Of a stretch of DNA of 24,000 nt, positions 2,928-17,891 are shown in pieces (within the stretch, counting starts at the first letter, position 1; the number at the start of each line of letters is the position of its first letter). Source of the DNA: Terriglobia bacterium (lineage in GTDB: Bacteria; Acidobacteriota; Terriglobia; 2-12-FULL-54-10); NCBI GenBank assembly GCA_963662495.2, contig CAXVYQ010000008.1:452903-476902 (forward strand). Reading direction: 5' to 3'. The notes below the pieces were generated by a model. That model was not told where the DNA came from and did not search any database. It worked only from the letters and a program-made list of their open reading frames with translations. The position numbers and the translations under genes were made by a program.

Positions 2928-3427
2928 ACCGAGCCTCCATCGGCTCCCCGTTCAAACCCGGGCGCAACAACCCCGCGATTCCCGGAAACCGATTCTTTCC
3001 ACCGCACCGTGACACGACCTTGCCCCGCATGGCGAGCCACACCCATGGACCTATCTTCCATGCAAGCAGGCAAGCAAGCGCCGGGTCAGGATATTTCCCC
3101 TTAAATCAACTGTCTTTTCTGCAACACATGCCAACATTTTACAGGCATTCCCCTGGTCCTGGATGGTGTGCAGTGTTGTACATTCCTCATTCAGGACTCA
3201 GATCGGCCTCAGTCCCACCCGGGTCAGACCCGGTCGACCCGTCTCGGGATAACACGCCGAAATCGGGTCCCAGAGAGTTTCATCGGCTGGAGGACGCCAT
3301 CCGATAAGCATTGATTCCGGCTATTCGGGAGTCATCCATCTTGCTTCAGAATTCGATCTCAACCCGCGAGAAGGACCGGCGGGCAGGGATCACAAGAAAA
3401 TAACCCTTTGATTAGCAACAGCATATA

Positions 3428-3456
3428 TTGGTACGCTTGGTCCCATTTGGTATGCT
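3428..3456 (+). promoter_or_regulatory. sigma-70-like promoter candidate for the ABC operon
   Basis: TTGGTA-N17-TATGCT (-35 at 3428-3433, -10 at 3451-3456). It overlaps an 11-mer direct repeat, TTGGTAYGCTT, at 3428-3438 and 3447-3457. This would give a leader of about 160 nt. Confidence 0.3.
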
Positions 3457-4651: not shown

Positions 4652-5430
4652 GAAACATCTGGACCATTGCCCGCAAGGAGATGAACAGCTATTTCCGGTC
4701 TCCGATCGGGTACTTCATCCTGGCGATCTTCGCATTCCTTTTCGGGTTCATCTATTACCGGTCGGTGGCCGATTTCATCTTCACGAGCCTGACCCGGGCA
4801 CAATACGCGCAGATGTATGGCCAATCCATGCCACCCATGAACGTGAACGAGATGGTCATCCGGGGACTGCTCAGCACCACCAGCTTTTTCCTCCTGTTCC
4901 TTGTGCCGATGATCACGATGCGTCTGTTCGCGGAAGAGAAAAAGACGGGAACCATCGAGCTGCTGATGACCTCCCCGATCACGGAGATGCAACTGGTCCT
5001 CGGAAAATTTTTCGGCTCGCTCCTCCTCTACTCCATCATGCTCGGCATCACCGTTCCGTTCATGATGATCCTGTTCCGCTACGGCAACCCGGACTGGAAG
5101 CCGGTGGTGGCGGGCTACCTGGGCCAATTGCTGCTGGGAGGAACGTTCATTTCCCTGGGGCTGATGTTTTCCACCTTCACTCGAAACCAGCTCATCGCGG
5201 CCAGTCTGACGTTTACCACCCTGCTGCTGCTCTGGGTCATCGGATTCTGGAGCCAGAGCTCGGGCTCCGCCTGGGCGCAGATCGCCAGCTATATCGCGAT
5301 CCTGACGCACATCGAATCCTTTACCAAAGGCGTGATTGAATTGAAAGATACGCTCTATTACCTGAGCGCGATCGGACTGGGGCTGTTCCTCTCCGTGCGG
5401 TCGGTGGAATCAACCCGGTGGAGGGCTTAA
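4648..5430 (+). CDS. ABC-2 type transporter permease (GldF-like)
   Basis: ATGA start/stop overlap with the ATPase gene. The protein is polytopic and hydrophobic (about 6 TM segments) with an N-terminus (IARKEMNSYFRSPIGY) typical of ABC-2 permeases. Confidence 0.85.
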   Translation: MRNIWTIARKEMNSYFRSPIGYFILAIFAFLFGFIYYRSVADFIFTSLTRAQYAQMYGQSMPPMNVNEMVIRGLLSTTSFFLLFLVPMITMRLFAEEKKTGTIELLMTSPITEMQLVLGKFFGSLLLYSIMLGITVPFMMILFRYGNPDWKPVVAGYLGQLLLGGTFISLGLMFSTFTRNQLIAASLTFTTLLLLWVIGFWSQSSGSAWAQIASYIAILTHIESFTKGVIELKDTLYYLSAIGLGLFLSVRSVESTRWRA

Positions 5431-5433
5431 CAG

Positions 5434-6837
5434 ATGAATCTGGGATGGAAGAGCAAAATGACGAGCCGCCAAACCAAGTACGGGCTGAACAGCCTGCTCT
5501 ACGCGCTGGCCGGAATTGCCATCGTGATCGTGATCAACCTGATCGCGGCTCGCGCCCCCACGCAGATCGGCGGCATGAACTTCGACTGGCGCTGGGACCT
5601 GACCAGCAATCAGCGGTTCAGTCTCTCGCAGCAGTCGGTGCAGATTCTGGCCGGTCTGGACCGGGACGTGGAACTGGTTTACTTCGCCCGGCAGGCCGAG
5701 CTGATAGGAATGCGGGATCTGCTGGAGCAGTACACAGCGCAGAGCCGCAGAGTCTCGGCCACCTACTACGACCTGGACCGGGAGCCGAACGAAGCGACCC
5801 GCTTGAACGTTACGGAATATGGAACCGTGGTGGTGGCGTCCGGCGACAGAAGCGAGCTGGCCGGCGGGGTGCGAGAGGAAGACATCACGAACGCGATGAT
5901 CCGGCTGCTGAAGGAAGAAGCGAAGGTGGTCTACTTCCTGCAGGGCCATGGCGAGAGGCAGATCGATTCCACCGAGCGGCGGGGCTACAGCGAAGTGAAG
6001 ACGGCGGTGGAAGAAATTAACTACGAGGTGAGGACGCTCTCCTTGCTGGAGGAAACTCCCACGATTCCAGGCGACGCCAGCGTGCTGGTGGTGGCCGCGC
6101 CGCAGACGGAGTTTCTGGATCCGGAGATCGCCGCCATCAAGGAATATATGATGAAAGGCGGGCGGGTGTTTTTCCTGATCTCCCCGCAGACGCCGGCCAA
6201 GCTGGTCAGCCTGCTGGGCGAGTTCGGGGCCGATATCTCGAACACGCTGGTGGTGGATATGAGCGGGATCGGAAAACTGTTCGGCACCGACGAGCTGATG
6301 CCGCTGGCGCTGGAGTATGAAGACCACGCGATCACGAAGGACATGGCGAACGTTGCGACGATGTTTCCTTTTTCCAACGCCGTGCGGGCGACCAGCGATT
6401 ACATGCCCGGAGCGGAGTTCCGGTTGCTCGCCAAGACCGCGAGCCAAACCTGGGCGACGCGCGACGTGGAATCCCGCGAAGTCAGCTTCCAGGAGGGCCG
6501 CGATCTGGAAGGACCCCTCGCGCTGGTCGGCGCGGGCTCCTTTCACGACGTCAACGATCCCGGCGCTCCGCAAGGGCGGTTCGTGGTATCGGGAAGCGCC
6601 GACCTGGCCAGCAACGCCATCCTGGGGTTTAATGGAAATCGCGACCTGTTCCTGAACTCCATGAACTGGCTCTCCTCCGATGAGGATCTGATCTCGATTC
6701 GTCCGACCGATCCGGAAGACCGGCGGGTGGATCTGACGCCGGGACAGTTATCGTTCATCTTCTATTTTTCGCTGGTGTTTGTGCCGCTGGCGGTGATCGG
6801 GACCGGACTGGGCGTCTGGTGGAAACGGCGTGGATAG
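5434..6837 (+). CDS. GldG-like ABC-transporter auxiliary component
   Basis: It starts 3 nt after the permease stop. It has an N-terminal TM, a large soluble region and a C-terminal TM (FIFYFSLVFVPLAVIGTGLGVWW). Size and position match GldG-family proteins, which follow ABC-2 permeases. Confidence 0.75.
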   Translation: MNLGWKSKMTSRQTKYGLNSLLYALAGIAIVIVINLIAARAPTQIGGMNFDWRWDLTSNQRFSLSQQSVQILAGLDRDVELVYFARQAELIGMRDLLEQYTAQSRRVSATYYDLDREPNEATRLNVTEYGTVVVASGDRSELAGGVREEDITNAMIRLLKEEAKVVYFLQGHGERQIDSTERRGYSEVKTAVEEINYEVRTLSLLEETPTIPGDASVLVVAAPQTEFLDPEIAAIKEYMMKGGRVFFLISPQTPAKLVSLLGEFGADISNTLVVDMSGIGKLFGTDELMPLALEYEDHAITKDMANVATMFPFSNAVRATSDYMPGAEFRLLAKTASQTWATRDVESREVSFQEGRDLEGPLALVGAGSFHDVNDPGAPQGRFVVSGSADLASNAILGFNGNRDLFLNSMNWLSSDEDLISIRPTDPEDRRVDLTPGQLSFIFYFSLVFVPLAVIGTGLGVWWKRRG

Positions 6838-8473: not shown

Positions 8474-8836
8474 GTGGCGGGATTGACCGGCGTCCTGCTG
8501 CGTTACTGGCTATCGGGCTGGGTCGATCACTGGATGCATCAGCGGTTTGGTGGAACCTTCCCGCTGGGGACGCTGCTGGCGAATCTGGCCGGCTGCTTTG
8601 CGGCCGGGTTTCTGTTCCACTACCTGACGGAAAAGACCCTGCTGGACCCCCGGGTTCGCATCTCCATCCTGGTGGGACTGCTGGGAGGATTTACCACTTT
8701 TTCTTCCTACGCGGTTCAGACGCTCTCGCTGTTTCGTGACGGCGAAACCTCTTTGGCGCTGCTGAGCCTGACGGTCTCGAACGTGGGCGGGCTGGCGCTG
8801 GCCTGGGCCGGATACGAACTATCCCGCTCAATTTGA
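8474..8836 (+). CDS. crcB: fluoride ion channel CrcB/FluC
   Basis: The conserved GGFTTFSS motif is present in a small four-TM protein. The start is uncertain: CrcB-like sequence (VLYIGV) continues in frame upstream of GTG 8474 with no start codon (see findings). Confidence 0.85.
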   Translation: MAGLTGVLLRYWLSGWVDHWMHQRFGGTFPLGTLLANLAGCFAAGFLFHYLTEKTLLDPRVRISILVGLLGGFTTFSSYAVQTLSLFRDGETSLALLSLTVSNVGGLALAWAGYELSRSI

Positions 8837-8844
8837 GGAATGCG

Positions 8845-9165
8845 ATGGATGAATCCACGGAAGGAACTCTGCTCCGCATCTATGTGGGGGAAAATGACCG
8901 GGCCGGAAAACTTCCTTTACACGAGGCCCTGGTGCTGAAGGCGCGGGAGGCCGGACTGGCCGGAGCGACGATGCTGCGCGGCGTGGTGGGCTACGGCAGG
9001 GGAAGCGTGGTGCATACGGCGAAGATCTTCTCGCTGTCGGAAGAACTGCCCATGGTGGTGGAGATCGTGGATCGGACCGAGAAGGTGGAGCGGTTCCTCC
9101 CTGTTCTGAAGCAGACAGCTCCCTCCGCGCTGACCACGCTCGAAAAAGTCCGCATACTGAGCTGA
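8845..9165 (+). CDS. DUF190 domain protein (crcB-associated, PII-like)
   Basis: LLRIYVGENDR...PLHEALVLKAREAGLAGATMLRG..GYG is typical of DUF190, which commonly follows crcB. ATG 8845 is preferred (GAGGA at 8836-8840) over TTG 8833. Confidence 0.8.
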   Translation: MDESTEGTLLRIYVGENDRAGKLPLHEALVLKAREAGLAGATMLRGVVGYGRGSVVHTAKIFSLSEELPMVVEIVDRTEKVERFLPVLKQTAPSALTTLEKVRILS

Positions 9166-10702: not shown

Positions 10703-12118
10703 ATGACCTCGATGACGAACGGCAAGACATTATTCGACAAGATCTGGAACCGGCACGTGGTGGTGAATGAGCCGGAGTATCCCACCGTGCTCTATATCGA
10801 CCTGCACCTGATCCACGAAGTTACTTCTCCGCAGGCCTTTCAGTCGTTGCGCGAAAAGGGCCTCCAGGTGCGGCATCCCTCCCGCGTTGTCGCCACGATG
10901 GACCACAGCATTCCTACCAAGGACCGCTCGCTGCCCATCGCCGACCCGATGGCCGCCAACCAGATTCGCCAACTGGAGGAGAACTGCCGGCAGTTCGGGG
11001 TGCCGCTGTTCGGCATGAACAGCGATTTTCAGGGCATCGTACATGTCATCGGACCGGAGCTGGGACTGACGCAGCCGGGCATGACGATTGTCTGCGGCGA
11101 CAGCCACACCTCCACGCACGGCGCCTTCGGGGCTCTGGCGTTCGGCATCGGCACGACCGAGGTGGAGCACGTGCTGGCGACCCAGTGCCTGTTGCAGAGA
11201 AAACCGCAGACCTTTGAAGTTCGAGTCAACGGGGCGTTGCAACCCGGCGTTACGGCCAAGGACATCATCCTGGCTCTCATCGCGCGCAACGGCGTGGGCG
11301 GCGGCGTGGGCTGCGTCTTCGAGTTTACCGGCAGCGGAATTCAATCCCTTTCGATGGAAGAGCGGCTGACGATCTGCAACATGTCGATTGAGGGCGGTGC
11401 GAAAGCCGGCCTGATTGCTCCCGACGACACGACCATCGAATACATGGCCGGCAGGCCGTACGCGCCAAAGGACGCTGCCTGGGACGAGGCCGTGCGGTAC
11501 TGGAAGAGCCTGCCGAGCGAGCCGGACGCCCCGTTCGACAAATCCATCACCATGGAGGCGGGCGAGCTGGAGCCGATGGTTACCTACGGCACCAATCCCG
11601 GCATGGGGATTCCGGTAACGGGAGTGATCCCGCAGCCCGATTCCCTCTCCGATGCATCGTCGCGAAAAGCCCTGGAGCACTCGCTCGAATACATGGCCCT
11701 GGAGCCGGGAAAACCGTTGCTGGGCCATCCAGTGGATGTGGTCTTCATCGGCAGTTGCACGAACTCGCGCATCTCGGACCTCCGCGCGGCGGCGCAGATC
11801 CTGAAAGGGCGAAAAGTGAGTCCGAGCGCGCAGGTGCTGGTAGTTCCCGGATCGCAGCAGGTGAAGCGTCAGGCGCAGGAGGAAGGATTGCCCGAGATCT
11901 TCCGGGAGGCGGGCTGCGATTGGAGGGAGCCGGGTTGCAGCATGTGCCTGGCGATGAACGGCGACGAGCTGCGGCCGGGGCAGTACTGCGTCTCGACCAG
12001 CAACCGGAACTTCGAGGGACGCCAGGGCAAGGGCGGCAGGACGTTTCTGGCCAGCCCACTCACGGCGGCAGCCTCCGCGATTGCCGGAAAAATCGCCGAC
12101 GTCCGGACTTTGCTCTAA
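10703..12118 (+). CDS. leuC: 3-isopropylmalate dehydratase large subunit
   Basis: [10 protein letters not shown]......[32 protein letters not shown] and the Fe-S Cys ligands (GSCTNSR, GCSMCL) are present. The start could also be ATG 10712. Confidence 0.95.
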
Positions 12119-12163: not shown

Positions 12164-13387
12164 TTAACTGACCCAGTTAGCGTAGTCGAACTGGGGTTTT
12201 TCCTCTTGATGGGTTTCCCCGGCGCGGGAGATGGCGAGCTTGGTGGCGAGAGGCCCGATCATCTCGAAGACGATGATCGAGGAAAGGATCACCGCCGTAA
12301 TGACGGTGCTGAATTCGGGAAACCGCCGGCTGACCGACAGGGTCAACCCGATGGCCAGTCCCGCCTGCGTCATCATGCCGAAGCCCAGCCAGGCCGGTAT
12401 CTTCCCGCCGAAGCCGACCAGCCTCGACCCCACACTCGTTCCGACGAACTTTCCCACCATGCGGCATCCCATATAGATCGCACCCAGCACACCGATCGAA
12501 CTGAGCAGGGAGATATCCAGATCGGCGCCCGCGATCACGAAGAAGATTGCATATAAGGGTGGATCAGTCTGTTCCAGCGCCTGGAACAGGGAACGGCTGC
12601 GGGTGGAAAGATTCACCATCGTGGCCCCCACGGCAAGGCTTGCCAGCAAAGGGGACAGCTCCAGCCAGATCGCGACTCCCACGCAGAGAAGCACGCAGCC
12701 CACCAGCAGAATCAGCGACTCCCCGTGCTCGACGACCTGGGAACCCCAGGTTGCCAGCAGCAATCCGATCAGATAGCCCAAAGCAACGGAACCCACCAAT
12801 TGCCACAGCAGCGGGTAGATGGACAGGTAGAGCGACAGCCAGATGGAGGTGGTCTCGATCTGCAGGATGCCGGTGATTTCTATCAACGTGGCAACGAGGC
12901 TGAAGGCAACCAGACAGAGCACGTTATTGGTGGCGATGACGCCCATGAGGGTGTCGCTGAACGGGCCGCTCGCATTGGACTCCCGCATGACCATCAACGT
13001 GGAGGCGACGGCTGTTTCCATGGAGATGGCGCCCAGCAGCAGAGCCACCTGCCAGGGCGCCCCGTTCAAGATGGCCCCGGCCGTTACCAGCACGAAGGCC
13101 AGGCAGGATTCGATCAGAGTGAGCGAAAGCAACTGGCGTCCGACGGTCCGGATGCGGCTGAACTCAAAGACCGATCCCACCGAAAACAGGATCAATCCCA
13201 AAGTAACCTCGCTGAAGATGCTCAGTGTGTTCAGGTTCTCGTGGCTGACCCAGCCGAGCACGGATGGACCCAGCACGACGCCGGCAACGATGTAGCCGCT
13301 GACCTCCGGAATGCGGAGAAACTTGACCAGATGGCCGGCCAGCAACGCCAGAAGCAGGATGATTCCCAATGAGGCTAATTCATTCAT
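12164..13387 (-). CDS. cation:proton antiporter (CPA2 / Na+-H+ exchanger family), no KTN domain
   Basis: The N-terminus LLLALLAGHLVKFLRIPEVSGYIVAGVVLGPSVLG is typical. The 407 aa protein is polytopic. Confidence 0.85.
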   Translation of the reverse strand: MNELASLGIILLLALLAGHLVKFLRIPEVSGYIVAGVVLGPSVLGWVSHENLNTLSIFSEVTLGLILFSVGSVFEFSRIRTVGRQLLSLTLIESCLAFVLVTAGAILNGAPWQVALLLGAISMETAVASTLMVMRESNASGPFSDTLMGVIATNNVLCLVAFSLVATLIEITGILQIETTSIWLSLYLSIYPLLWQLVGSVALGYLIGLLLATWGSQVVEHGESLILLVGCVLLCVGVAIWLELSPLLASLAVGATMVNLSTRSRSLFQALEQTDPPLYAIFFVIAGADLDISLLSSIGVLGAIYMGCRMVGKFVGTSVGSRLVGFGGKIPAWLGFGMMTQAGLAIGLTLSVSRRFPEFSTVITAVILSSIIVFEMIGPLATKLAISRAGETHQEEKPQFDYANWVS

Positions 13388-13443: not shown

Positions 13444-14781
13444 TTAAGGGATTAACAGTCCGATATGCTTGCTGCCGCGGTCCACCACGACAAAGGCCGG
13501 CCGCCGCTCGGGCGAGTCCAGCAAACTCAAAACTTGAGCCGGTCCACGCACCACCGTGTCGCCGATGCGCAATACACGGTCTCCAGCATGCAGCCCCGCC
13601 TCGGCCGCCGGGCTCCCCGGTACCACCGACTCGATCCGATATCCCGGCGCCGGGCCGGTAAGAATCAGTCCGGCGCCCGGCGCAAGTTGTCCGAACTCCG
13701 TCTCCGGTTGGGTTGGTGGACCGACTGGAATTCTCACGCGGCTGCCACTCCTCAGAATCTCCAACTCCAACGGCTCATCCTCCGGAGCAGGCGGAGCGGA
13801 ACCGAATAAGGGCTGCAGTTCGCTGATCTGAATCACCGGCCGGTCCCCCAGCGAAAGGATCAGGTCGCCCGGCGCCAACCCCAGCCGTTCGGCGTGCGAG
13901 CCCTTCCAGACCTCGCGGATCAGAAAACCCTCCCTGGAATTGAAATAGGCGATCTCGTCTTCATCCAGCATGTCCATCCGGATTCCGAACCGCCATAACA
14001 ACCTGCTGGTATTGCTGTTGGCCAGCAGCAACACGGCATCCACTTCCGCGGCCGCCATCGCCACGGCCTCTGCTTCGCACTGAATAACGATGGCAACCAG
14101 AGCGCCCTGAATGTCGAACAGTCCGGCGCCCAGCATCTCCAGGCCAAGTGGATGACTCGTCAGGACTACTCGCAATTGCCGTCCCTGGCATGTGGCGATG
14201 GAAGGGCCTGCGAACCATCCGGGCGAGAAAACATATTCTCCGGAGGATTGCCGGGAAATGGCCAGCAGCCAGTCGCCCAGCTTCAGGTCGCGAGTGGAAC
14301 GCATCACCGGGGGCGGCGTCGTTACGATCGGCGGCGCCCGCAGCAGCGCCACGGGCAACAGGGGCGAGGCAGCGTCGATCTGTGCAATGGACGGCGTATC
14401 ATTGTCTGTGATCCAACGCACGGTCTCCGGCACGAAACCACCCCGCACCGCGGCGACGATTGTTCCACCATCGTCCCAGAGAACACCGCTCCCGTCGAAC
14501 TCTTCCAGCCGGACCACGTGGCGGGAAAGCTCCGCGCTGAATTCGGAGAAATATTCGCTCATGTCCTGAAGCGAGGTCCGCGCCGCGGCTCGACGCAACC
14601 GGGTGAGCTCGGTCTGGGAAACGGGCTGTTGCTCCACCGGCTGATCGGCCGGACGCAGCAGGCTGCCGACCAACAGGATCAGACCCGCGGCCAGGGCCAG
14701 TATGCCGATATAGCGGAGATTGGGCCGGTCGTCGGATTTTTCTTGCCGCTCCTGCGTCATGGCATGATTATGCCTGTCCAT
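13444..14781 (-). CDS. membrane-anchored HtrA/DegP-like protein with two PDZ domains and an apparently inactive protease domain
   Basis: An N-terminal TM is followed by a trypsin-like region (GSGVLWDDGGTIVAA..., ...GAGLFDIQGALVAIV). Two PDZ-like segments follow (SHAERLGLAPGDLILSLGD and GSPAAEAGLHAGDRVLRIGD). By manual alignment, the triad positions are not His, Asp and Ser. Confidence 0.7.
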   Translation of the reverse strand: MDRHNHAMTQERQEKSDDRPNLRYIGILALAAGLILLVGSLLRPADQPVEQQPVSQTELTRLRRAAARTSLQDMSEYFSEFSAELSRHVVRLEEFDGSGVLWDDGGTIVAAVRGGFVPETVRWITDNDTPSIAQIDAASPLLPVALLRAPPIVTTPPPVMRSTRDLKLGDWLLAISRQSSGEYVFSPGWFAGPSIATCQGRQLRVVLTSHPLGLEMLGAGLFDIQGALVAIVIQCEAEAVAMAAAEVDAVLLLANSNTSRLLWRFGIRMDMLDEDEIAYFNSREGFLIREVWKGSHAERLGLAPGDLILSLGDRPVIQISELQPLFGSAPPAPEDEPLELEILRSGSRVRIPVGPPTQPETEFGQLAPGAGLILTGPAPGYRIESVVPGSPAAEAGLHAGDRVLRIGDTVVRGPAQVLSLLDSPERRPAFVVVDRGSKHIGLLIP

Positions 14782-14949
14782 CCGGCACGCTCACAACGGA
14801 ATTAATTTTGGGGTAGTGTCTCAGTTCAAAATATTGCGGGGATTTCGCCCGTTCCCAATTCGAAGTGACCCAATTCTACAGGGCGATGATATGCTGGACG
14901 GGAGCGGTGGTCCTCCCACCGACGACACCCGTTAATGGACGTGAGGATC

Positions 14950-15564
14950 ATGGAACCGTTTACCCGTCTGACCAGTCGCATCGTTCCCGTGCCGAACGAT
15001 AATATCGATACGGACATCATCATCCCGGCCCGGTATCTGAAGGTTACCGACAAGGCGGGGATGGAGAACTATCTGTTCCGCGACTGGAGGTTCGATTCGT
15101 CCGGGAATCCGATTCCCGATTTCATTCTCAACCAGCCCCGCGCACAGGGGGCGCGAATTCTGCTGGCCGGGAGAAATTTCGGCACCGGCAGCTCGCGCGA
15201 GCATGCCCCGTGGGCGTTGACCGCCTTCGGTTTTCGCGCCGTGATCAGCACATCGTTCGCGGACATCTTCCGCGGCAACGCGCTGAAGAACGGGCTGCTC
15301 CCCGTCGTTGTTCCGGAGGAGGTTCACGCGGAACTGTTCCCGATGGTGGAAGCCGACACCGGGATGGAACTCTCCATCGACCTCGAATCTCAGACGCTGG
15401 AGATTCCCGGCGGCAGGAAGGTTCCCTTTCCCATCGATACATTTTCCAAACGATGCCTGCTCGACGGTGTCGACCAGCTTGGCTACCTGGTGAAGCAGGA
15501 AGCCCACATCAGCGACTTCGAATCGGCGCACCCGGCCCCGGTCGATACGCTGTCCACCCCGTAG
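14950..15564 (+). CDS. leuD: 3-isopropylmalate dehydratase small subunit
   Basis: MEPFTRLTSRIVPVPNDNIDTDIIIPARYLK and GRNFGTGSSREHAPWAL are present. ATG 14950 gives the canonical N-terminus; the track start 14935 is 5 codons longer. Confidence 0.9.
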   Translation: MEPFTRLTSRIVPVPNDNIDTDIIIPARYLKVTDKAGMENYLFRDWRFDSSGNPIPDFILNQPRAQGARILLAGRNFGTGSSREHAPWALTAFGFRAVISTSFADIFRGNALKNGLLPVVVPEEVHAELFPMVEADTGMELSIDLESQTLEIPGGRKVPFPIDTFSKRCLLDGVDQLGYLVKQEAHISDFESAHPAPVDTLSTP

Positions 15565-15877
15565 GGCATCGCGATTCAAAACTGTTCTGTCTCTATTCTT
15601 GTAAGCCGGCCTTGGTGAAACCGTCCGATCGTTACCACCGGAGGCCGCCGCTTCCGTTGCGCCAGACTCACCTCCACCCGGGCGAAGTTCCGCCAGTTAT
15701 CCAGGCCGGGATGAGTGAAATACAACGACTGGTCCGGTAGATTTTTCACGGGATTTGCTCTGCCGGGCTGCGGGGTTGGCATCGTTCCATGGCTTCGAGC
15801 GCGCGCTTACCGGAAGCTGCCCCCGCCCCGAACCGGGGCAGGACGATGCCCGGACTGAGATGGCCGGCGCGGGTTGC

Positions 15878-16336
15878 TTACCGGCCCAGCTCGGCCAGAA
15901 CTTCCTCGGCGTGTCCGTCCGGCTTGACCTTGGGGAAAATCTTCTGAATCTTCCCCTCGCCATCGATGAGGAACGTCGTCCGCTCGATTCCCATCACCGT
16001 CTTGCCGTACATGTTCTTCTCTTTCAAAACGCCGTAGTCGGCCGCCATCCTGCGCTCCACGTCGCACAGCAGGGGAAAGTTCAGGTCGAATTTTTCCTTG
16101 AACTTCGTCTGGGCGGCCGGGGTATCGGGACTCACGCCGAGGACGGGCACCTTTTGACTCTTGAACTTCGGATACAGATCGCGGAACCCGCGAGCCTCCA
16201 CCGTTCAGCCAGGAGTATCGGCTCTGGGATAAAAGTAGACCACCACGGGATGGCCCTTGAAATCCGCCAGGCGAACCGTATTTTCGGCGTCGTCCTGCAA
16301 CTCGAATTCCGGCGCCGCCTGTCCTTCCTGCAACAT
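15878..16336 (-). CDS. bcp: Bcp/PrxQ-type peroxiredoxin with in-frame TGA (16207-16205) at the peroxidatic position; putative selenoprotein
   Basis: Track ORFs 16205..16411 and 15878..16201 share one frame and are separated only by TGA+ACG. Joined, they read ...VVVYFYPRADTPG[TGA]TVEARGFRD..., collinear with Bcp YFYPK..TPGCT..AC..RD. ATG 16336 has GGAGGGAG 5 nt upstream, and the total of 152 codons is a normal Bcp length. Confidence 0.7.
16176..16196 (-). promoter_or_regulatory. SECIS-like hairpin downstream of the in-frame UGA
   Basis: On the minus strand the sequence is GGCU-CGCGG-GUU-CCGCG-AUCU: a 5 bp GC core plus U-A, G-C and G-U closing pairs. The stem starts 8 nt after UGA, and the G/U-containing apical loop starts 17 nt after UGA. 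Confidence 0.4.
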
Positions 16337-16373
16337 AGAATCTCCCTCCGTCCTGTAACTTATCTCGCGAAAC

Positions 16374-17891
16374 CTAGTCCGTCCGCTCCAGTTCCTGCTG
16401 GAGCAGATCATTCACCTTCTTCGGATTCGCCTGTCCCCGGGTCTCCTTCATGACCTGTCCCACGAAGAAACCGATCAGCGTGGTTTTTCCGGCCCGGTAC
16501 TGTTCCAGTTGTTTCGGACTCGCCGCGACCACCTTCCGGACAATCTCCAGAATCTGGCCATCGTCGGTGATCTGCTTCAGGCCCTGCTCCTCCACGATCT
16601 GCCGCGCGCTCTTCGAGGTGGTGAACATCTGCTCGAAGACGCCCTTGGCCATCTTCCCGGAGACCGTTCCCTCATGAATCAGCGCAATCAGCTCCGCCAG
16701 CTCCTCGGCCGGAATGGGCGAGTCGCCGATGGTCTTTCCGGCGCCGTGCAAAGCTCCGAGAAGTTCCACCATGACCCAGTTGGCGGCCAGTTTCGTGTCC
16801 GGAGAGTTTTTCGCCACCCGCTCGTAGAAGTCCGCGAGGTCCTGCGAATCGGTCAGCACGGCGGCATCGTAGTCGCGCAAACCGTACGCCTGGATCAACC
16901 GGAACCGCTTCTCATCGGGGAGTTCCGGCACGCCACGGCGGATCTCGTCCCGCCACTCGTCGCTCACGATGAGCGGCTGCAGATCGGGTTCTGGAAAATA
17001 GCGGTAGTCGTGCGCTTCTTCCTTGCTGCGCATGCTTTCGGTCCGGCTGTGCTGTGAATTCCAGAGCCGCGTCTCCTGCACCACCTTGCCGCCCTCATCC
17101 ACAAGCCGCATCTGCCTTTCGATCTCATACTCCAGGGCGCGCTCCACAAAGCGGAACGAGTTCAGGTTCTTCACCTCCGCCTTGGTTCCCAGCTCCTGCT
17201 GGCCCCGCGGCCGGACACTCACGTTGGCGTCGCAGCGCAGGCTGCCCTCTTCCATGTTGCAATCGGAGACGTCCAGGTAGAGCAGCGTCTGCTTCAGCCG
17301 CGTCAGGTATTCGTGAGCTTGCGGAGGACTGGTAATATCAGGCTCGCTGACGATCTCCACCAACGGCACGCCGCTGCGGTTCAGGTCCACGTAGGTTTTC
17401 CTGTGGGAGTCGGCGAACCCGTCGTGGATGCTCTTGCCCGCATCCTCTTCCATGTGCAGCCGCGTGATGCCGATCTTTGTCTCCTCGCCACTGCCAAGCA
17501 CCAGCAGCCATCCATGCTCGGCCAGCGGCAGATCGAACTGCGAGATCTGGTATCCCTTTGGCAGATCGGGATAGAAATAGTTCTTCCGCGCGAAGATCGA
17601 GCGCTGATTGACGCGGCAATTCAGCGCCAGCGCCGCTTTCACGGCCATGGCGACCGCCTCGCCGTTCAGCACCGGAAGCGCGCCCGGCATGCCGAGGCAA
17701 ACCGCGCAGGTATTCTGATTGGGGGGCGCGCCGAACCTGGTGGAGCAGGCGCAGAATATCTTGGATGCGGTCCGTAGCTGGACGTGCACCTCCAGCCCGA
17801 TGACGGGTTCGTACTTCTCCCGCAACGCTTCCATCTGACCCTTTTTGACTTCCGTCACTCCCATAACGACAGCTTTTCCTTCTGCTCGCAA
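16374..17891 (-). CDS. gatB: Asp-tRNA(Asn)/Glu-tRNA(Gln) amidotransferase subunit B
   Basis: YEPVIGLEVHVQL.T.SKIFC.C.. and the conserved core and C-terminal YqeY-like tail are present. The coordinates give the maximal ORF (TTG 17891). ATG 17834 (MEALREKYEPVIGLE) gives a more canonical N-terminus. Confidence 0.92.
   Translation of the reverse strand: MRAEGKAVVMGVTEVKKGQMEALREKYEPVIGLEVHVQLRTASKIFCACSTRFGAPPNQNTCAVCLGMPGALPVLNGEAVAMAVKAALALNCRVNQRSIFARKNYFYPDLPKGYQISQFDLPLAEHGWLLVLGSGEETKIGITRLHMEEDAGKSIHDGFADSHRKTYVDLNRSGVPLVEIVSEPDITSPPQAHEYLTRLKQTLLYLDVSDCNMEEGSLRCDANVSVRPRGQQELGTKAEVKNLNSFRFVERALEYEIERQMRLVDEGGKVVQETRLWNSQHSRTESMRSKEEAHDYRYFPEPDLQPLIVSDEWRDEIRRGVPELPDEKRFRLIQAYGLRDYDAAVLTDSQDLADFYERVAKNSPDTKLAANWVMVELLGALHGAGKTIGDSPIPAEELAELIALIHEGTVSGKMAKGVFEQMFTTSKSARQIVEEQGLKQITDDGQILEIVRKVVAASPKQLEQYRAGKTTLIGFFVGQVMKETRGQANPKKVNDLLQQELERTD

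Follow-up and report, generated by a model that had tools for sequence, protein, structure and literature searches.

Does a UGA at the catalytic codon of a peroxidase gene terminate translation, or is it read as an amino acid? The question is raised by a locus in 24,000 nucleotides of DNA from a Terriglobia bacterium of the Acidobacteriota (contig CAXVYQ010000008.1, positions 452,903 to 476,902; hereafter the window), where two minus-strand open reading frames (ORFs), 16205..16411 (68 aa) and 15878..16201 (107 aa), form one frame split solely by a TGA at 16207-16205. An initial annotation, made from the letters of the window without database searches, had joined the two into a single peroxiredoxin (Prx) gene of the Bcp/PrxQ type and proposed that its UGA is recoded as selenocysteine (Sec). 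The joined frame is confirmed, and the Sec reading is supported by retention of the TGA in diverged orthologs, by purifying selection on the frame beyond it and by a hairpin after it that fits the bSECIS model (bacterial selenocysteine insertion sequence) and is maintained by selection. We consider it very probable that the gene 16336..15878 encodes a functional selenoprotein, a Bcp/PrxQ thiol peroxidase with Sec as its peroxidatic residue (codon 44, UGA). The gene and its product are referred to below as Sec-bcp and Sec-Bcp, and homologs are called Sec-type or Cys-type according to whether they have TGA or a Cys codon at this position.

The stop codon and the peroxidatic residue

Read from the ATG at 16336-16334, the joined product is 152 aa long (...YFYPRADTPG-U-TVEARGFRD...), and its MLQEG N terminus matches those of full-length homologs. 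With U replaced by Cys, its score on the 'thioredoxin-dependent thiol peroxidase' model NCBIfam NF006960 is 162.7 bits, above the cut-off of 140, and that on Pfam AhpC-TSA is 140 bits (4.6e-41; cut-off 26). The nearest solved structures are the PrxQ/BCP chains 5enu, 5iph and 3gkk (E = 9e-37 to 1e-31), to which it is collinear over its full length. The active-site motif P37-R-A-D-T41-P-G-U44 is present, and R119, within GIER, aligns with the same Arg of the solved PrxQ chains; we presume that Arg119 has the role in Sec-Bcp that it has in peroxiredoxins generally. As the initial annotation had stated, the TGA sits exactly on the peroxidatic-Cys codon of the PxxxTxxC motif: in the homolog alignment, column 44 is Cys in 118 of 118 Cys-type homologs and TGA in 116 of 116 Sec-type sequences.

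Conservation of the TGA and selection on the frame

The in-frame TGA is conserved. Among the matches of a database protein search are two clusters, P0003 (99%) and P0117 (88%), each exactly 107 aa in length, and their contigs, in assemblies from seven other samples, have the same layout of 43 aa, stop and 107 aa within the same gatB-bcp-leuD synteny; the TGA is kept in all of these loci (L001-3, L004 and L205-207). Across 45 differences in 459 nt, the 88%-identical ortholog has retained the TGA and acquired neither an indel nor a further stop. Comparison of Sec-bcp with L001 by the Nei-Gojobori method, at a dS of about 0.35-0.37, gave an omega (the ratio of nonsynonymous to synonymous change) of 0.049 before and 0.159 after the TGA, with synonymous change exceeding nonsynonymous change in the downstream part (p=1.2e-6). 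The region 3' of the TGA, to which the initial annotation had drawn attention, is under purifying selection and free of frameshifts.

The same arrangement extends well beyond the immediate lineage. Metagenome contigs scanned with the degenerate pattern F-Y-P-x-x-x-T-P-G-TGA-T gave at least 120 matches, and 119 of the 120 listed are Bcp homologs, 33-65% identical to Sec-Bcp, in which the frame runs for some 100-115 codons beyond the TGA and stops at the normal C terminus. Among species-representative genomes, whose contigs reach a best identity to Sec-Bcp of 65%, TGA is found in 10 of the 80 most similar bcp loci, in Acidobacteriaceae, Terriglobia, Ca. Sulfotelmatobacter and Ca. Korobacteraceae. 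One metagenomic member (L111, on contig Ga0126369_10040826, minus strand, match at 2748-2779) has a C-terminal extension of about 260 aa that matches PatG_D and PatG_C (TIGR03895, PatA/PatG cyanobactin maturation protease, C-terminal region; 1.6e-87), an unexpected fusion for a selenoperoxiredoxin.

These data bear on the most obvious alternative, a nonsense pseudogene, in which a Cys-type bcp lost its function through a TGC-to-TGA change and the ORF after the stop is now decaying. The change is a single transversion, the nearest positional orthologs of Sec-bcp (P0002, P0005 and P0014) have TGC and lack the G-loop hairpin described below, and genes of the Sec machinery are not seen locally. 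Against this, a true nonsense mutation would leave the region downstream of the TGA unconstrained, and the constraint found there therefore argues that the gene is not a pseudogene: the TGA has been retained across 45 differences in 459 nt, with a downstream omega of 0.16 and no indels or extra stops. Intact frames are also seen in 119 of 120 unrelated TGA-type genes from metagenomes, and the synonymous constraint that preserves the hairpin is confined to TGA-type genes. Downstream selection, the intact TGA-type family and the covariation of positions 20 and 24 of the hairpin together effectively refute the pseudogene, which we regard as very improbable. The initial annotation would have taken TGC in close relatives, without a conserved hairpin, as a refutation of Sec; the observation itself holds for P0005 and P0014, but the conclusion does not follow, because among selenoproteins the pairing of Sec and Cys forms is the rule (PMC1794560).

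A SECIS-like hairpin under selection

The initial annotation had also pointed to a G+C-rich hairpin with a GUU loop 17 nt past the UGA, in the geometry of a bacterial selenocysteine insertion sequence (bSECIS), and both descriptions are correct. Numbered from the U of UGA, the stem is U15-G20/C24-A29 and the loop G21-U22-U23; the lower stem begins 7-8 nt, the upper stem 11 nt and the apical loop 17 nt from the UGA. The bSECIS model describes an upper stem of 4-16 bp and an apical loop of 3-9 nt, with G at loop position 1 or 2 and usually G or U after it, at 16-37 nt from the UGA and with a minimum free energy (MFE) of at most -7.5 kcal/mol (PMC13188914). With its 3-nt loop, 6 contiguous bp, G followed by U, 17-nt spacing and -8.0 kcal/mol, the hairpin falls within all four sets of bounds. 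A strict implementation of the model was passed by 61 of 126 Sec-type and by none of 57 Cys-type genes.

The RNA structure is under selection at synonymous sites, and in TGA-type genes only. Among genes encoding the same G-F-R-D residues, the Gly codon is GGG in 66 of 73 Sec-type and 4 of 41 Cys-type genes (Fisher p=2e-18), although GGG makes up just 20% of Gly codons in the genes of the window; the Phe codon is UUC in 73/73 and 21/41, respectively (p=3e-11), and the local fold is the more stable in Sec-type genes (MFE -11.75 kcal/mol, against -7.49 in Cys-type genes; p=1e-10). Selection thus acts on the first loop base, G21, at a synonymous position. When codon 50 reads GAG in place of GGG, the Phe codon turns synonymously to UUU, preserving the pair 20-24. 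Positions 20 and 24 covary accordingly in Sec-type genes (GC 77, GU 1, AU 14, AC 8; p=1e-10) and show no association in Cys-type genes (p=1.0). Folding energy over +4..+60 does not separate the two types (p=0.10); energy of the whole region is too blunt a measure, and hairpin-specific tests were used in its place.

The family is not uniform in this respect. A sub-lineage with the motif UTIEGQ[EK]LRDEF (loci such as L088, L101, L123, L142, L154 and L156) lacks the GUU hairpin and has another about 5 nt further downstream, for example GGAACUC-CGGGAU-GAGUUCC. The Sec-Bcp family thus employs at least two SECIS designs. On the Cys side, four of 57 bcp genes (among loci L005-L084) retain, where the SECIS would be, a G-first 3-nt loop closed by 5 bp or more; such hairpins may have been left behind when Sec reverted to Cys, a process described in PMC1794560 for other families.

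Several findings weigh against Sec recoding and should be set beside the above. The fold of the single sequence is unexceptional (z = -1.8, with 9-12 of 200 shuffles folding equally well); for this reason the Cys-type homologs were taken as control, and only the comparison across genes lifts the hairpin above chance. These controls are phylogenetically narrow, being mostly Acidobacteriaceae. The hairpin is identical in both Sec-type species of the lineage, and the covariation stems from the wider family. Over the whole heterogeneous family, a 9-bp consensus is paired in 63.8% of cells, a level that none of 500 shuffles reaches, and the margin is modest because some sub-lineages place the hairpin differently. 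Rfam, searched with the whole window at the gathering threshold and with 15800-16400 at E<=10, gave chance-level snoRNA and miRNA matches only and no SECIS family. Lastly, no selA, selB, selD or tRNA-Sec gene lies within the window or the approximately 26 kb seen around Sec-bcp.

The selenocysteine machinery and the meaning of UGA

The search for Sec machinery was widened to 1.2 Mb of fetched loci, probed with SelA and SelB of Solibacter usitatus (PMC1794560 supplement). SelA gave no match in these loci, nor did E. coli SelD, for which an approximate sequence served as a homology probe only; by ARAGORN, the window has no tRNA and the 209 fetched loci no tRNA-Sec. The SelB probe gave one match, on L072, a 654-kb contig of a Ca. 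Sulfotelmatobacter metagenome-assembled genome. This contig carries a TGA-type bcp (2984-3456) with the same UTVEARGFRD motif and an identical SECIS core, GAGGCUCGCGGGUUCCGCGA, and the selB gene (5182-6429, minus strand) lies 1.7 kb from it, with a DNA-3-methyladenine glycosylase gene between. The selB ORF contains SelB-wing_3 (4e-19), SelB-wing_2 (3e-13) and Beta-barrel_SelB, and its top NCBIfam match is TIGR00475. Use of Sec in Acidobacteria is on record for Solibacter usitatus, which has SelA, SelB and a Sec-containing FdhA (PMC1794560 supplement), and for Occallatibacter riparius (PMC12013277).

A full-length product could also arise without selenium, if the hairpin stimulated insertion of Trp, Cys or Arg by a near-cognate tRNA or if the UGA were passed by some SelB-independent route. 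Read-through of bacterial stop codons stimulated by downstream structure exists, and Sec insertion in Sec-Bcp rests on inference. Trp or Arg at the peroxidatic position would nevertheless destroy catalysis in a protein that is under purifying selection; the hairpin, moreover, bears the specific SelB-type signature of the bSECIS model (a small loop, G then U and 17-nt spacing), and in L072 an identical SECIS stands beside selB. We assign this alternative much the same very low probability as the pseudogene.

Still less credible is a split gene, in which polypeptides of 43 aa and of 107 aa, the latter from the GTG at 16201, reassemble or act independently. The GTG does lie two codons past the TGA, and both pieces appear in gene calls, but such a division would remove the catalytic residue, and the TGA is always exactly on the Cys column. 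Nor is a restart codon conserved after the TGA, codon 46 specifying I, A, K, T, N or V over the family, and this excludes the two-polypeptide arrangement. Genome-wide reassignment of UGA or an error of sequencing or assembly, to which we attach a vanishingly small probability, is refuted by the TGA being identical in independent assemblies from 8 samples and being the ordinary stop of three of the 14 window genes, where homology expects it (the sigma-54 activator, the ABC ATPase, with its ATGA start/stop overlap, and SMC). UGA is therefore not reassigned genome-wide, and the recoding is specific to this site; a scan for other TGA-interrupted genes in the window returned just off-frame, low-complexity artefacts of its 60% G+C.

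Sec recoding thus remains the reading that we prefer, and we infer from it the following sequence of events. SelB, carrying Sec-tRNASec, would bind through its C-terminal winged-helix domain to the 6-bp G+C-rich stem with its G-U-U loop, 11 nt past the UGA. The UGA would then be decoded as Sec in place of termination, and translation would run on to the TAA to yield the 152-aa protein. The selenolate of Sec44, positioned by Thr41 and Arg119, would be expected to attack peroxide and form a selenenic acid, which could be resolved by Cys91, the only cysteine of the protein, or directly by thioredoxin.

Arg49, Cys91 and the resolving residue

The initial annotation had remarked that the usual +5 resolving position is Arg, and Sec-Bcp indeed lacks a resolving Cys there, Arg49 being encoded by CGC (16192-16190). 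A +5 resolving Cys is typical of atypical 2-Cys Bcp and is not obligatory, 1-Cys BCPs being accepted members of the family. In the present case the codon has a second role, as it pairs across the SECIS stem with the codons of Arg52 and Asp53. A UGC (Cys) codon gives the pair U16.G28 and a CGC (Arg) codon the pair C16-G28; U.G is found in 68 and C-G in 43 family sequences. Arg at +5 occurs in 25 of 116 Sec-type and 2 of 118 Cys-type proteins (p=7e-7) and is encoded by CGC in 25 of the 27 cases, against a local share of 28% of Arg codons; the +5 Cys is missing in 70 of the 116 Sec-type relatives. Loss of the +5 Cys looks like a one-base UGC-to-CGC change favoured by SECIS stability, the Cys having probably given way to Arg because codon 49 belongs to the SECIS stem.

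Where resolution might then take place is suggested by the Cys-type relatives, in which Cys49 and Cys91 are nearly mutually exclusive: 79 of 118 have the former only, 32 the latter only, five have both and two neither. This exclusivity, together with Arg49 and a lone Cys91 in Sec-Bcp, makes Cys91 a candidate resolving residue, and its place in 'FPLLCD' hints, as judged from the sequence, at a resolving site apart from those described in PrxQ (+5, and C84 of Xanthomonas, equivalent to position 80). A resolving residue may also be dispensable, since 29 of the 116 Sec-type proteins have no other Cys whatever. We offer one further scenario tentatively, as possible though on balance doubtful: the demands of the SECIS reshaped the chemistry of the enzyme, pressure for SelB to bind a tighter stem having changed UGC to CGC at codon 49 and so deleted the resolving Cys, Cys91 at the end of the 'FPLLCD' strand came to form an Se-S bond with Sec44, and the mutual exclusivity of the two positions would mark out atypical 2-Cys PrxQ enzymes of a third class.

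The locus and its evolution

The features of the gene are collected in Table 1. The gatB gene adjoins 11 Sec-type and 10 Cys-type bcp genes, and in the window gatB and bcp form a possible unit of co-transcription; a scan for promoters and terminators around Sec-bcp gave nothing above shuffle expectation.

Table 1. Coordinates, in the window, of Sec-bcp, its functional elements and the adjacent gatB
Feature	Position	Strand	Remarks
gatB	16374..17864	-	Pfam GatB_N and GatB_Yqey; directly upstream of bcp, 37-nt gap
Shine-Dalgarno sequence GGAGG	16345..16349	-	8 nt upstream of ATG; from the sequence, putative function
Sec-type bcp/prxQ gene, complete	15878..16336	-	152 codons; ATG start 16336-16334; TAA stop 15880-15878
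Codon 41, ACT, Thr of PxxxTxxU active site	16214..16216	-	kept in alignments to solved PrxQ structures
Codon 44, in-frame UGA, peroxidatic residue of PxxxTxxU motif, very probably read as selenocysteine	16205..16207	-	catalytic Cys column in all homologs
Extended SECIS hairpin with lower stem	16169..16203	-	MFE -16.6 kcal/mol; lower stem less conserved in family
SECIS upper stem-loop UCGCGG/GUU/CCGCGA	16179..16193	-	6 bp; 3-nt loop 16187-16185, G first; -8.0 kcal/mol alone
Codon 49, CGC, Arg at usual +5 resolving-Cys position	16190..16192	-	5' side of SECIS stem
Codon 91, TGC, sole cysteine of Sec-Bcp	16064..16066	-	candidate resolving residue
Codon 119, Arg of GIERTTF, conserved peroxiredoxin active-site arginine	15980..15982	-	'GIER' kept in PDB PrxQ chains

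The closest Cys-type relatives, P0002, P0005 and P0014 (67-72% identity), share the extended synteny SMC...gatB-bcp...leuD-leuC and are positional orthologs of Sec-bcp; they carry TGC and lack the G-loop hairpin (-9.4 and -9.8 kcal/mol). In a neighbor-joining tree, weakly supported and built on biased sampling, Sec-Bcp stands as the sole Sec form among the 15 Cys forms of its clade; over the whole tree, at least seven Cys/Sec changes are needed. Such repeated change agrees with the published picture of conversion in Prx (PMC1794560).

Elsewhere in the window, leuC (10703-12118, plus strand) and leuD (14935-15564, plus strand) are parted by two minus-strand genes, for a Na+/H+ exchanger (12164-13387) and a PDZ serine protease (13444-14781). 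In L208 and L209, which are Cys-type relatives, the two leu genes adjoin each other; the contrast suggests that an insertion or rearrangement took place in the source lineage. A crcB fluoride-channel gene (8483-8836, plus strand) is followed by a DUF190 gene (8845-9165, plus strand), and Rfam at the gathering threshold found no fluoride riboswitch in the window.

Comparison with known systems

Selenoproteome surveys have met this class of protein before, as the initial annotation had rightly said. Sec-containing 'Prx' (TxxU) was represented by 43 sequences, assigned to COG1225, in the 2005 survey of the Sargasso Sea (PMC1088965), by 12 in the bacterial genomes of 2006, for which five Cys-to-Sec events were inferred (PMC1794560), and by 253 in the GOS data of 2008 (PMC2398784); it is listed again in a 2026 review (PMC13188914). 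COG1225 is the bcp COG (PMC4326396). Sec-Bcp shares with the surveyed family its assignment to COG1225/PF00578, the PxxxTxxU motif with Sec for the peroxidatic Cys, a bSECIS within the ORF with G in a small loop, widespread Cys homologs and repeated Cys/Sec conversion. Its membership rests on motif, COG and Pfam identity rather than on direct alignment to the catalogued sequences. It differs in its soil and groundwater acidobacterial lineage, its conserved gatB-bcp-leuD locus, Arg at +5 and Cys91.

In the account of Sohling et al. (2001) given by PMC13188914, the only biochemically characterised Sec-peroxiredoxin is PrxU of Eubacterium (Peptoclostridium) acidaminophilum. PrxU, which is thioredoxin-dependent, has like Sec-Bcp a peroxiredoxin fold and Sec at the peroxidatic position, but it belongs to another Prx subfamily. 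Sec-Bcp is no PrxU ortholog, scoring 38.8 bits on the PrxU model NF040737 (cut-off 270), and it likewise falls below the cut-off of the Prx-SUH thiol peroxidase model NF045827 (27.3 bits, cut-off 298; both NCBIfam). The use of Sec in the two proteins arose independently.

Cys-type Bcp/PrxQ proteins (E. coli Bcp, Xanthomonas campestris PrxQ 3gkk/5iph and the Burkholderia-type 5enu) resemble Sec-Bcp in size and in the active-site Pro, Thr and Arg, whereas they have a peroxidatic Cys and lack a SECIS. For resolution they use a Cys at +5 (alpha2) or at Xc C84 (position 80); Sec-Bcp has neither of these and has Cys91 instead. The hairpin, for its part, may be compared with those of E. coli fdhF and fdnG, the experimentally defined bacterial SECIS elements, whose minimal upper stem-loop lies 11 nt from the UGA and has G-U in its apical loop. 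The Sec-bcp hairpin is similarly inside the ORF directly past the UGA, with the same 11-nt placement and an apical G-U, but it has no sequence similarity to them, a 3-nt GUU loop and no bulged U, and its binding by an acidobacterial SelB is a prediction.

Implications

As the initial annotation had foreseen, gene callers report Sec-bcp in fragments: public gene calls (P0003, P0117 and P0121-P0123; L001-L004 and L205-L207) consist of separate 43-aa and 107-aa products, the larger of which carries the JGI name 'peroxiredoxin Q/BCP'. Because of these split calls, no database entry includes the catalytic residue, and the dependence of the organism on selenium is overlooked. With the Sec-Prx family catalogued in metagenome surveys two decades ago (since 2005), current understanding is not overturned, and the added interest is modest, lying in an amino-acid change driven by the SECIS and in Cys91 as a possible resolving site. 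The Sec-bcp data show how an RNA element within a coding region constrains codons and even, at +5, the choice of amino acid (Arg). The presence of TGA in approximately one in eight of the most similar genomic Bcp loci and in at least 120 metagenomic contigs indicates that Sec-Bcp is a common antioxidant enzyme of soil and groundwater Acidobacteriota, and the availability of selenium may influence the defence of these bacteria against peroxide.

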